From IMG/VR virus record IMGVR_UViG_3300020530_000006: a stretch of DNA of 64,000 nucleotides; one strand, written 5' to 3'. How positions within the stretch are numbered: position 1 is the stretch's first letter; each line of letters begins with the position of its first letter. Shown here piece after piece: positions 3,448 to 60,671 of the stretch. The translations under genes were made by a program, and so were the position numbers. The notes under the pieces are model-generated. The model was not told the origin of the DNA and ran no database searches. It worked only from the letters and a program-made list of their open reading frames with translations. The stretch comes from a virus.

Positions 3448-3806
3448 ACTGTAAAAAAAATTTTGAATTATTTTTCTATATCAAAGACTATAACGATAAA
3501 CCATCGTGTATACACTGTAATAAAGCCAATACCCAGCGTCTCTATGCTTTAGATGTTGCCACACAATCAGCATCTGTTAAAAAAAGCGATACGGAGTTGA
3601 AAACAATTGGGGATTTGGCCTTGAGAAACGCAGAAAAAATGAGCGACGATGAGAAGATGAGCCTGCACAAGAAACATAACTCGTATAGAGATGAACAAAT
3701 AGAAAAAGATTTGCCTTCTGGAATGGGCAGAATTAAAAAACCAGAAAAACCAAAGTGGCCAGGAATAAGCAACACAAAGAAAAGAAGGAAACTAAAAAAT
3801 GGATGA
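3420..3806 (+). CDS. FmdB-like zinc-ribbon protein
   Basis: MPTYSYECLNC...FE...CIHC N-terminus. Confidence 0.8.
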   Translation: MPTYSYECLNCKKNFELFFYIKDYNDKPSCIHCNKANTQRLYALDVATQSASVKKSDTELKTIGDLALRNAEKMSDDEKMSLHKKHNSYRDEQIEKDLPSGMGRIKKPEKPKWPGISNTKKRRKLKNG

Positions 3807-4173
3807 TATGTTTAAAGTAGATAAGTCTAAGACGCCAGAAGAATATAACTATACATACTATACAATATTTGGTTCTCACGAAGACTTGGACAACGATGGA
3901 AATCCATTGATCCAAGATAAGAAAAAATGCCTAGCTTATATTAGACATGGTAATGAGGATGAACATTTTTATTTGAAAGTTGGTACTTATGGGAAAATTT
4001 TCAATCCTATTGGACTATACTCAGAAGGAAGACAAAATAAGTTTTTATCAAAAATTGGTAAGGAAGAATACTCATTTACAAGAGTCAACAATAAGGTGTT
4101 TAGTATGTATCTAAATTTTTTACGAACAAAAAATATGGCATGGTTAAACAATGCGGAAAGGGAACTATCATGA
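3799..4173 (+). CDS. Hypothetical protein
   Basis: 124-aa ORF overlapping both neighbours in a tightly packed operon. Confidence 0.7.
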   Translation: MDDMFKVDKSKTPEEYNYTYYTIFGSHEDLDNDGNPLIQDKKKCLAYIRHGNEDEHFYLKVGTYGKIFNPIGLYSEGRQNKFLSKIGKEEYSFTRVNNKVFSMYLNFLRTKNMAWLNNAERELS

Positions 4174-57936: not shown

Positions 57937-58021
57937 AAGTTCTCCTTATATGATTATAGTAATCAAAAAAGAGAATTAGGCAAATTAGATATTTTGAGCC
58001 TATCGGTAAATTTTCTTTGTT

Positions 58022-58654
58022 TTATAGGCCGTATCTACCTTTAATAGTATTATAATTTTGTAAAACTTCAGACGATGATAGTTCTTTATTATATAATTTT
58101 AGTGTGGATACTCTACCAGACATATAAGCTGTATCAGCTCGACCAATATAGATATTCCCAGTTGTTGTAACCTTTGATCCAAAAGTACTTACTAGATTAC
58201 CATTAACATAAAATAAACTAGATGATGACTTTCTAATAATCGTGGCGATAACCCATGAATTAATAGGAACAGAACTTGTTACTGCTGTAGACGAAGATCC
58301 TGGACCCCAATATGTAACAGAAGCGAAATTGAATATGCTCCACTGCCACGTGGTAGAATTATAAGCATTAGCTCCAGCATATATAATTGGAAAATTATTT
58401 CTATTGTTCATATAAAAAGAAACTTCCACAGACAGTGGCTCAAGAACATGCGGAACTATTGCATACTGACTTGTTCCATTAAGAGAAAAATAATTATTAG
58501 TAAAAGTTGGACTATTATATAGTGTAGCATTATATCCTGAACTAGACATATCATTCCAATTAGCTCCGCTGCCAGAATAGCTTTTATTAGATGCGGCATC
58601 TAAGCATAGAATAAGAGAGTCTGTGACTATTTTTGGTCCGTTATTATAGCTCAT
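58022..58654 (-). CDS. LamG/concanavalin A-like domain protein
   Basis: GPKIVTDSLILCLDA..KSY.GSG..W.D.S, FYVNG, LYNKELSSSEVLQNY...KGRYGL. Confidence 0.85.
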   Translation of the reverse strand: MSYNNGPKIVTDSLILCLDAASNKSYSGSGANWNDMSSSGYNATLYNSPTFTNNYFSLNGTSQYAIVPHVLEPLSVEVSFYMNNRNNFPIIYAGANAYNSTTWQWSIFNFASVTYWGPGSSSTAVTSSVPINSWVIATIIRKSSSSLFYVNGNLVSTFGSKVTTTGNIYIGRADTAYMSGRVSTLKLYNKELSSSEVLQNYNTIKGRYGL

Positions 58655-58691
58655 TCAATAAAACCTTATTAGTAAAATTGTTTAATGTTTT

Positions 58692-58930
58692 TGACCCATG
58701 GCTACCGCCAACATTGTGTCCTATAGTTTCCTATAAGCATGGACTATATCTTCCACGTTTGTGGTGGGGGCGCTCTAGCCTGTTATTAAAACAAACCTTT
58801 TTGTTTCAGGTAGTCTCTACACCTTCACAGAGATGGCTCTGTGCTTGGCTCGGTATTGCCATCAGCATTATCTGTTAAGGTTTCACCGAATTCACCCCCA
58901 ATGGGCCTATTCTCATATGGTGCTGGGCCT
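58692..58930 (-). ncRNA. ORF-less group I intron/ribozyme (IA-like, with P7.1)
   Basis: Minus strand: P3 UGGGGGUG/CGCCCCCA, P AAUUCGGUGAAA, Q AAUACCGAGC, P6a CACAGAG/CUCUGUG, R GUGUAGAGACUA, P8 CCAC-AAAC-GUGG, S AAGAUAUAGUCC, P9 UUAUAG-GAAA-CUAUAG, end ACAAUG (terminal G at 58712). Confidence 0.88.
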
Positions 58931-59473
58931 CCTTTCAATATTATTGTTCTTATATACTATGACAATGTTATTTTGAGTAATTTTTCCGTATCTATATATT
59001 TTAAAAAAATTAGGAATAGGAAGATTAGGAAAATCGCCAGGCTCTTTTTCAATAGCTATACTGTGAACACCCTCTATAAAAAAATAGCTATTGTTAGAAG
59101 GAAAGCTAAATAAAGACTTTAAAATAGATTGAGTAATAAATGTTGGTTCGCTTTCTCCTGTTACTTCTGTCGAATGAACAAGAGATCTAGAATTAAGTTC
59201 AGAAATGTCGATCACATTATCGGGCTGTTCAAAATTTTTAACACCTTTATATGTTTTGTAGTAATTAAAATTGTCATTCATGGATATATATTGATAAACA
59301 TATCTTCTTATACAAAGATTCTTTCTACTACCTGTTGATCCAGATCCGTAAAGAATAGCTTTTCCTCCACTTTTAAGAGTTGGGGGGGTATAAAATGAAT
59401 ATGTTTCTCCTACCGGATCAAAATAAGGATCATTGTTGTCAAAATGTGGAGGTTGTCCGTATACATTAGTCAT
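58913..59473 (-). CDS. Hypothetical protein; its 3' end runs into the group I element
   Basis: 186-aa ORF, TAATG-coupled to the upstream mini-gene. Confidence 0.65.
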   Translation of the reverse strand: MTNVYGQPPHFDNNDPYFDPVGETYSFYTPPTLKSGGKAILYGSGSTGSRKNLCIRRYVYQYISMNDNFNYYKTYKGVKNFEQPDNVIDISELNSRSLVHSTEVTGESEPTFITQSILKSLFSFPSNNSYFFIEGVHSIAIEKEPGDFPNLPIPNFFKIYRYGKITQNNIVIVYKNNNIERRPSTI

Positions 59474-59619
59474 TATAGTCCAAACCTTCCTTTAGTAGCA
59501 TTATAATTGTATAAAATTTCATTTGCTGATAATTCTTTATTATAAACTCTAGTAATAGCAATATCAATACAAAAAACTAATCCATCAGTAACTATATCTG
59601 GTCCTCCGTATATAGACAT
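59473..59619 (-). pseudogene. Internally deleted LamG gene (48-aa mini-ORF)
   Basis: MSIYGGPDIVTDGLVFCID joined directly to IAITRVYNKELSANEILYNYNATKGRFGL, matching the two termini of the 58022-58654 LamG protein. Confidence 0.85.
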
Positions 59620-59628
59620 AATATTTTC

Positions 59629-60048
59629 CTATATATATTGAGCTTCTATAAAAGCAGTATCAACCTGATTTTCTGTTAATCCTAGAGCCTGAGCTAGCGG
59701 AGCTAACATAGGATGATTTCTTTCCACATAAGGAGCATATTCCCATTCAACTTTTATAGTTTCTCGTGTTATTGGATCTTCTATACTATTTATAGCATTT
59801 TCTACTTGAGTTAATTGAATGCCGTTATTTATTAACCATAATCTTATTTGTCGTGCGCTAACGCTTTCTGGAACCGATTGTTGATATTGCGTCCATACTC
59901 CATTATTCCAATAATAATCATTGGCTGGTTTTTCTGGTAGTAAAGCCCACTTGTTTTTTTTGGGATTGTCGTTTTCAATCCAACCAGATACAAGTTCATC
60001 ACTCAGATCTTTAATTTCATAAGTGTCAACATTATAATATAAATTCAT
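59629..60048 (-). CDS. Tail-fibre-associated (chaperone-like) protein
   Basis: YYWNNGVW..., VPESVSARQIRLWL...EWEYA..VER.HP....LGLT..QVD..F..A module, commonly found next to fibre genes. Confidence 0.55.
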   Translation of the reverse strand: MNLYYNVDTYEIKDLSDELVSGWIENDNPKKNKWALLPEKPANDYYWNNGVWTQYQQSVPESVSARQIRLWLINNGIQLTQVENAINSIEDPITRETIKVEWEYAPYVERNHPMLAPLAQALGLTENQVDTAFIEAQYI

Positions 60049-60671
60049 GAATATATCCTATTATGAGTAGTAACTGTTGCTGCGTTATTATTTGTTAAAG
60101 TAGTATTATTATTATATTCATAAAGATTTCTTACCAAAGGAGCATAATACTCTAGTGATTGTGGCCTTATTTTTTTTGCAGAGAATCCTTTAACTAAGCT
60201 ATTAATCTCGTCAATATTGAGAGCTGCTGACCATATAGCAATGTCACTTATATAACCATCGAAACCTTCTACTGTATTTGTTCCAATTAAAACTCTAGTT
60301 AAACTAGTTGGCGTAACATCAGTCGTATTAGTGCCACTGGAACCTCCATCTCTATAAATTGTTCGTGATGTTGAGGATGAACAAACGAAACAAACATGGT
60401 GCCAAGTATTAATAGTGAATCCACTAGTGGTTTGGGCAATATAATTTACTGTTGTTAATAAATTACCTCTAATAGGATCTGCTACTGCTTGGCCAGCAAA
60501 TAGCGTACGAAATCCTTGATTAGTAGCTGCTTGCAGCCAAGACATAATTGTCATAGCAACAGTATCATTAGTAGCATAGGCCCATGCGGAAAAAGTTACA
60601 GGATAAACAGAAATAGATGGTCCATTACCAGAAATAGATTGTGAGCTTGCTCTAACAAAATTATATGCCAT
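60045..60671 (-). CDS. LamG/concanavalin A-like domain protein
   Basis: TFSAW, NTWHHVC, IYRDG, FDGYISDIAIWSAAL..DEI..L. Confidence 0.85.
   Translation of the reverse strand: MAYNFVRASSQSISGNGPSISVYPVTFSAWAYATNDTVAMTIMSWLQAATNQGFRTLFAGQAVADPIRGNLLTTVNYIAQTTSGFTINTWHHVCFVCSSSTSRTIYRDGGSSGTNTTDVTPTSLTRVLIGTNTVEGFDGYISDIAIWSAALNIDEINSLVKGFSAKKIRPQSLEYYAPLVRNLYEYNNNTTLTNNNAATVTTHNRIYS

Follow-up and report, generated by a model that had tools for sequence, protein, structure and literature searches.

A candidate naturally permuted group I ribozyme between late tail-fiber genes of uncultured phages

INTRODUCTION

Group I ribozymes are the textbook self-splicing introns, and in permuted form they are the workhorse of synthetic circular-RNA production. 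The classical permuted intron-exon (PIE) RNAs are reportedly those of Puttaraju and Been in 1992. In an engineered Tetrahymena construct in which the ribozyme comes first, guanosine cleaves at a downstream 5′ site, and the insert is then circularized (Cui et al. 2023, PMC10415121).

The sole natural permuted group I case that we found in the literature is in coral mitochondria, and it arises at the level of the transcript: ND5-717, the giant group I intron of mushroom corals, is processed from a permuted precursor via a circular exon RNA (Chi et al. 2019, PMC6545197). A literature search for natural permuted group I ribozymes of bacterial or phage origin returned nothing. Among other ribozymes, the circularly permuted group II introns of bacteria set free a small RNA circle (Roth et al. 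2021, PMC8637638). The lariat-capping ribozyme GIR1 is of group I descent and carries out a branching reaction, according to the work of Nielsen et al. (2005) and Meyer et al. (2014) as it is cited in PMC8637638.

Here we analyze a phage locus whose initial annotation proposed a permuted group I intron with the splice-site helix downstream of the terminal G. That annotation named no natural permuted group I example, which the ND5-717 intron of mushroom corals, spliced from a permuted precursor, corrects (PMC6545197).

RESULTS

The window analyzed is a 64,000-nucleotide (nt) stretch of IMG/VR virus record IMGVR_UViG_3300020530_000006. On its minus strand, a group I ribozyme core (58712-58908) lies in a gap of 258 nt between an open reading frame (ORF) of 186 amino acids (aa) and a LamG gene (Table 1). 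These flanks are two complete, separate genes, and there is no interrupted gene that removal of the ribozyme would restore. The ribozyme is a cassette within a late tail-fiber operon of the phage. Among the homologues described below, the 3′ flank of the ribozyme is noncoding, with length differences that are not multiples of three, and the neighboring genes vary from locus to locus.

TABLE 1 Features of the ribozyme cassette and its neighbors (positions in the window)
Feature	Position(s)	Strand	Remarks
Whole ribozyme cassette (A-GGCCC guide, core P3-P9, terminal G, linker hairpin, GGGUC-AA)	58691..58908	-	Same layout in 17 homologous loci
Upstream gene, 186 aa, no known family	58913..59473	-	Stop codon 5 nt before guide; usual 5′ neighbor of ribozyme
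Downstream LamG-domain gene, 210 aa	58022..58654	-	Own start and AAGG ribosome-binding site, 39 nt past predicted cut
Guide strand GGCCC (3′ strand of predicted P1), followed by AUU (58902-58900) and P3	58903..58907	-	Invariant in 14/14
P3 5′ strand GGGGGUG, pairs with CGCCCCC 58772-58766	58893..58899	-	Compensatory changes in 3/7 pairs
P4-P5 domain, including J4/5 AAA; UCGGUG 58889-58884 pairs with UACCGA 58855-58850	58850..58889	-	P4 invariant, P5a covaries
P7 5′ strand GACUA, pairs with UAGUC 58746-58742; guanosine-binding pseudoknot helix	58811..58815	-	Invariant in 14/14
P8 hairpin, CCUG...CAGG plus inner stem	58779..58810	-	Compensatory changes in 4 pairs
P7.1-like hairpin CCAC-AAAC-GUGG, between 3′ strands of P3 and P7	58753..58764	-	3/4 pairs covary
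P9 hairpin CUUAUAG-GAAA-CUAUAGG, GAAA loop	58720..58737	-	6/7 pairs covary
Terminal G (omega G), predicted 3′ splice site directly after	58712	-	Equivalent G in 14/14 homologues
Predicted 18-nt mini-exon: U, hairpin UGGC-GGUA-GCCA (58710-58699), UGGGU	58694..58711	-	Homologue mini-exons mostly 18-22 nt
Substrate strand GGGUC (5′ strand of predicted P1); predicted 5′ splice site 58694/58693	58693..58697	-	GGGU invariant

A local, permissive Rfam scan of positions 58000 to 60200 matched RF00028 at 58720-58971 with a score of 50.2 bits (gathering score, 50) and an E value of 3e-11. This match was missed by the gathering-mode Rfam scan of the whole 64-kb window and by a genome-level RF00028 search, an effect of the speed filters, which can easily discard borderline ribozymes of this kind. 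The minimum-energy fold of 58687-58913 had a z score of −4.4, with none of 200 shuffles as good, and contained a closing helix of 7 bp plus P3, P4, P5, P6a, P9, and the linker hairpin. The two strands of P7 agree with the Rfam consensus, AGACUA and GAUAUAGUC. The group I core from P3 to P9, including the P7 guanosine-binding pseudoknot, is genuine and intact.

Homologues were collected in several ways. A pattern search with the core plus BLAST gave the viral contigs L018, L020, and L021/L023, which are about 80% (L018) to 88% identical to the ribozyme over the aligned stretch; the upstream proteins of these loci are 59, 41, and 32% identical to the 186-aa protein, and the ribozyme follows in each. 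A profile search with the 186-aa protein found 60 homologous proteins (P0001 to P0060), and when the contigs of ten of these were taken from across the range of identities, all had a gap of 210 to 435 nt after the gene, with the ribozyme in it. Thus, the ribozyme follows a homologue of the 186-aa protein in all 14 loci sampled. A core pattern without the guide added L068, L123, and L099 from metagenome contigs, the last of which (OGVY01003269.1, minus strand, around 691-960) is a more divergent member behind an unrelated K/E-rich gene. The L099 contig starts with Illumina adapter sequence. The resulting set is 17 distinct cassettes (14 aligned, plus 3 further loci), a lower bound, all from metagenomic sequences of uncultured phages.

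Two more guide-free core patterns were run against collections of viral and bacterial genomes. Besides L018, L020, and L021, they brought up conventional introns only. These introns have psbA, tRNA(CAU), tRNA-Leu, and protein genes as hosts, and each has its own upstream P1. Records of cultured phages gave only partial matches, and these were to conventional introns. The initial annotation had named homologues with the core but lacking the downstream complementarity as a finding that would speak against it; there were none in the family, and the other matches were ordinary introns with an upstream P1. These candidate permuted group I ribozymes are a small, well-defined family.

In the alignment of 14 sequences, A-GGCCC-AUU, the catalytic core (P4, P7, and J4/5), the terminal G, and GGGU(C/U)AA are invariant. 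When the structure, including the P7 pseudoknot, was applied to these sequences, 99% of the cells paired; with slid registers as a control, the paired share fell to 35 to 42%. Compensatory changes occurred in 24 of the 59 pairs, against a mean of 9.8 in shuffled alignments, and none of 500 shuffles reached 24. The covarying helices are P3, P5a, P6a, P8, P7.1, and P9; P4, P7, and the guide helix do not vary.

The usual group I order, in which the 5′ splice site precedes the core, was not found here. The P1 that Rfam proposes upstream (58968-58942) has no U·G and two mismatches and lies within coding sequence, and in the 14 loci there is no conserved GGGUY before or within the upstream gene, in agreement with the initial annotation, which found no credible P1 upstream of the core. 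The order is the permuted (PIE-type) one, in which the terminal G (58712) comes ahead of U58694 with 18 nt between, and it is the same in all 17 loci, which backs the proposed sequence of core, terminal G, short exon, and U·G splice-site helix. The guide GGCCC ends 3 nt before P3, and its complement GGGUC lies 3′ of the terminal G, past a small hairpin. The complementarity can be extended to GGCCC(AU), 58907-58901, with (AU)GGGUC, 58699-58693. These positions, and those of the second copy GGCCCA (58929-58924), the terminal G, and the hairpin, are as first annotated to the base.

U58694 forms a wobble opposite G58906, as had been proposed; the G·U wobble is present in all 14 aligned sequences, and C-G never substitutes for it in the 17 loci. 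Its polarity is that of a P1, with the G on the strand that enters P3 and the U on the opposite strand with one further pair after it. The predicted P1 would have 4 pairs on the exon side and 1 past the cut, and P10 at most 1 to 3 pairs. The base after GGGU is C in 13 sequences and U in one (L054), either of which pairs with G. A58908, which precedes the guide, and AA (58692-58691), which follows the substrate strand, are also invariant.

We estimate that a complementary 7- or 5-mer would turn up by chance within 60 nt in a single sequence with a probability of about 0.03 to 0.2, but the match exceeds chance because the same structural positions are kept in all 14 aligned sequences and in the 3 further loci. 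RNAalifold found the GGCCC-GGGUC pairing unaided in the 14-sequence alignment, and the sequence between and around the guide and GGGU(C/U) cannot be aligned among the homologues. The spacing from GGGUC to the ribozyme is kept, whereas the next start codon lies anywhere between 9 and 210 nt from GGGUC (4 nt in L099). Because the spacing is fixed only with respect to the ribozyme, GGGUC is part of the ribozyme and not of the start signals of the downstream gene.

Two copies of the guide had been put forward. The copy at 58907-58903 is conserved, and the comparison singles it out as the guide. It stands in the same relation to P3 as does the guide in the psbA intron from Synechococcus phage S-SRM01. 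In that intron, which lacks P2, the exon sequence GUGGCU pairs with GGUCAC, eight bases ahead of P3. The copy at 58929-58924 is missing in L018, L042, and others, as is the P2 that had been proposed to go with it [CC(A)UAU-GAGA-AUAGG, 58920-58906], which would also compete with the conserved guide for G58907-58906; we discarded both. Both are made up of the final codons of the upstream gene and the few bases that follow its stop. A weak promoter had also been suggested (TTGTCA-N16-TAATAT), but it matches at 9 of 12 positions, and the 2.2-kb region contains 10 such matches versus 11.7 expected from shuffles, so it is at the background level.

The initial annotation had looked to covariation among homologues as a test of the guide pairing. 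Both strands are kept in every family member, but among the 14 aligned sequences there is no covariation in the guide helix, which is invariant except for one pair-preserving change of C to U. Because this helix never varies, covariation can neither support nor refute the pairing. Its freezing beside peripheral helices that covary may reflect a constraint other than pairing, which could be tertiary recognition of P1 or another constraint.

The terminal G lies 6 to 8 A/U-rich nt past P9 and 0 to 3 nt ahead of the linker hairpin in 14 of 14 homologues. From the terminal G to GGGU, the sequence cannot be aligned and yet forms a hairpin in nearly every member, with stems that differ (UGGC/GCCA, UAGC/GCUA, UGCU/AGCA, AGGU/GCCU, CUGC/GCAG, CGUGC/GCAUG, GCGC/GCGC, and others). 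Thus, the hairpin first noticed within the 18-nt exon is retained in homologues whose sequences differ. The predicted mini-exon is 18 to 22 nt long in 12 of the 14 members; the two longer ones, of 35 and 67 nt, belong to L048 and L020 (cassette at 3642-3921), respectively. The permuted order of core, 3′ site, 18-nt mini-exon, and 5′ site is, as judged from these comparisons, a selected feature of the family, because it is kept while the identity of the upstream protein drops to 32% and the linker and the flanking genes change.

For comparison with conventional relatives, we used the psbA intron of phage S-SRM01 and the tRNA(CAU) and tRNA-Leu introns of jumbo phages and Gammaproteobacteria. The cores of these introns are about 74 to 81% identical to that of the cassette, and P3 to P9 and the P7.1-like hairpin are common to both. 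In conventional introns, the strand ending in U is upstream and splicing restores a gene; here, that strand is downstream and the flanks are whole genes. Klebsiella phage Muenster (MT708547, about 302827-303136; 2420-2729 in L001) has an unannotated tRNA with anticodon CAU and a group I intron of about 230 nt. This split tRNA, which ARAGORN does not report, sits between the annotated tRNA-Ser and tRNA-Asn, and its halves, once joined, form a normal cloverleaf with CCA at the end.

Pfam and PHROG contain no family for the 186-aa protein. AlphaFold modeled it with confidence (pLDDT, 83), but Foldseek gave no convincing match in PDB or BFVD (E at least 0.05), and in the Atlas there were only viral hypothetical clusters. 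An ATP-grasp/ligase-type fold was considered and rejected, the best VIA-align Z of 4.2 being under the tool's own noise level. The family is viral, with proteins of about 165 to 205 aa and the motifs GQPPxFD, YKTYKGV, and IYRYG. In several loci, the start of the gene overlaps the stop of a preceding fiber-like gene, which is the usual place of fiber accessory proteins.

Partial LamG sequences occur near the ribozyme. In the window, a 48-aa ORF at 59473-59619 (minus strand) is equal to a LamG protein, such as that of 58022-58654, reduced to its N-terminal ∼19 and C-terminal ∼29 residues, with the core missing, and in L044, L046, and L049 LamG N-terminal stubs (MAVYGGPDIVTDG...) lie 3′ of the ribozyme. 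Together, the 48-aa ORF and the stubs suggest recombination between the conserved ends of LamG genes. In L050, the LamG start as called (2718) lies within the ribozyme linker, 23 nt ahead of the predicted cut, and an ATG 25 nt past the cut is more likely to be the start.

DISCUSSION

We estimate a probability of about 0.55 that the cassette is a natural, self-contained group I ribozyme, circularly permuted by an opening in the P1 loop. In topology it would be a group I intron cut open in the P1 loop, with the old ends bridged by a hairpin. One of its closest counterparts is the ribozyme-first Tetrahymena construct, in which guide, core, terminal G, insert ending in a U that pairs with the guide, and tail come in the same order (PMC10415121). 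The phage ribozyme differs in being natural, phage-borne, and conserved; in its insert, which is mostly 18 to 22 nt and has no coding or other conserved sequence; and in having neither a designed P10 nor helper antisense arms. In classical PIE RNAs, the intron is split in P6 or P8, whereas here the break would be in the loop of P1.

Among natural systems, ND5-717 is likewise a natural group I ribozyme with a permuted intron-exon precursor. However, its gene order on the circular mitochondrial DNA is conventional and the permutation comes from where transcription starts, whereas in the phages the permutation is fixed in a linear gene order; ND5-717 is broken in P8 and yields a restored ND5 mRNA, whereas the phage break would be in the P1 loop and no coding exon would be rebuilt. 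The bacterial permuted group II introns resemble the phage cassette in being stand-alone permuted self-splicing ribozymes that interrupt no ORF, but they react by branching, whereas the phage ribozyme would use guanosine attack, and the two have no sequence or structure in common.

If the cassette reacts as group I introns ordinarily do, the first step would be an attack by free guanosine or GTP just 3′ of U58694, which would cut the polycistronic RNA between U58694 and C58693, 39 nt before the LamG start codon. The new 5′ end of the downstream message would carry the added G, possibly as a triphosphate if GTP were used, and the folded ribozyme would stand at the 3′ end of the upstream message. 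In a second step, the 3′-OH set free on U58694 would attack 3′ of G58712, and the 18-nt mini-exon (58711-58694) would become a ring. The engineered Tetrahymena construct of the same order is cleaved and circularized in the way predicted here (PMC10415121). In some members, the cut would leave a leader of only a few nucleotides; in L099, the next ATG is 4 nt past GGGUCAAC, and cleavage there would give a nearly leaderless message. Ordinary RNA-seq would miss a circle of 18 nt.

The ring is probably a by-product and the cut the selected outcome, because the hairpin shape of the mini-exon is conserved but its sequence is not. We speculate that the role of the cassette is phage-encoded processing of mRNA without a host enzyme, by which the downstream fiber/lectin gene would be uncoupled from the gene that precedes it. 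That the family is active in this sense, making a GTP-dependent cut in the late operon before fiber/lectin genes and shedding a ring of 18 to 22 nt, is a tentative reading to which we give slightly less than even odds.

The helix of GGCCC and GGGUC could instead be a structural closing stem, like a P2 or like P10/DP2 of the lariat-capping ribozyme, in a ribozyme that acts otherwise, by hydrolysis at the terminal G only, by cleavage in trans via a transient P1, or by a changed chemistry. The helix directly precedes P3, the place of P2 in many introns, and by position alone it might be a P2; it also lacks covariation. However, a structural stem should drift and covary, as P5a, P6a, P8, P7.1, and P9 do here, and the U·G pair has the polarity expected of a P1 and is never C-G in 17 loci. 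In addition, the identity of about 75 to 80% to ordinary self-splicing relatives leaves little room for a new chemistry. In favor of the analogy with GIR1, in that ribozyme, too, the 5′ region is joined by pairing to sequence just past the terminal G, and GIR1 is a group I derivative that does not splice and that processes the 5′ end of a downstream mRNA. But the Rfam scan of 58000-60200 (4,227 families, presumably with GIR1 among them as RF01807) gave no GIR1 match at E values up to 10. Furthermore, GIR1 has a 3-nt lariat fold right after the terminal G and then P10, where the phage sequences have a hairpin of 12 to about 60 nt, and its remodeled core without P1 is part of a twin-ribozyme intron that precedes a homing endonuclease gene, neither of which is seen at the phage locus. 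On balance, we regard a closing stem as unlikely.

Two further readings do without the predicted P1 reaction. The location between complete genes, with no reading frame to restore, would suit a catalytically dead scaffold that, for example, stabilizes the upstream message at its 3′ end, insulates translation, or binds a protein. Yet the elements of the catalytic core, the terminal G, and the wobble have stayed invariant while the proteins diverged to 32 to 40% identity, and a mere scaffold would tolerate changes at those positions, which makes this reading quite improbable. The other possibility is a conventional or trans-splicing intron whose real 5′ splice site is far upstream, making the 186-aa gene intronic, or is on another transcript, with GGGUC incidental. 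ORFs in the 5′ peripheral loops of introns are known, and UGGGCU at about 59951-59946 could pair with the guide. Against this, the genes on both sides change between loci while the guide is constant, and the upstream protein matches no endonuclease or maturase family. In the 159-kb phage genome, the ribozyme occurs once and no further group I match was found, although a bare GGGU target is beyond such a search. A distant upstream 5′ splice site with an intronic ORF was rejected for lack of a conserved GGGUY in the 14 loci, and we hold the reading as a whole, trans-splicing included, to be very improbable.

If the cassette is the permuted ribozyme that we propose, it would be the first natural example of a group I ribozyme whose permutation is fixed in gene order, and the permutation trick of synthetic circular RNA would be one that nature also uses. 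At about 215 nt, it would also be a very compact natural template for RNA circularization tools. It would mean that group I ribozymes can be retained for RNA processing instead of intron removal, as GIR1 is, and that phages may encode their own intercistronic mRNA cleavage, with no host enzyme needed.
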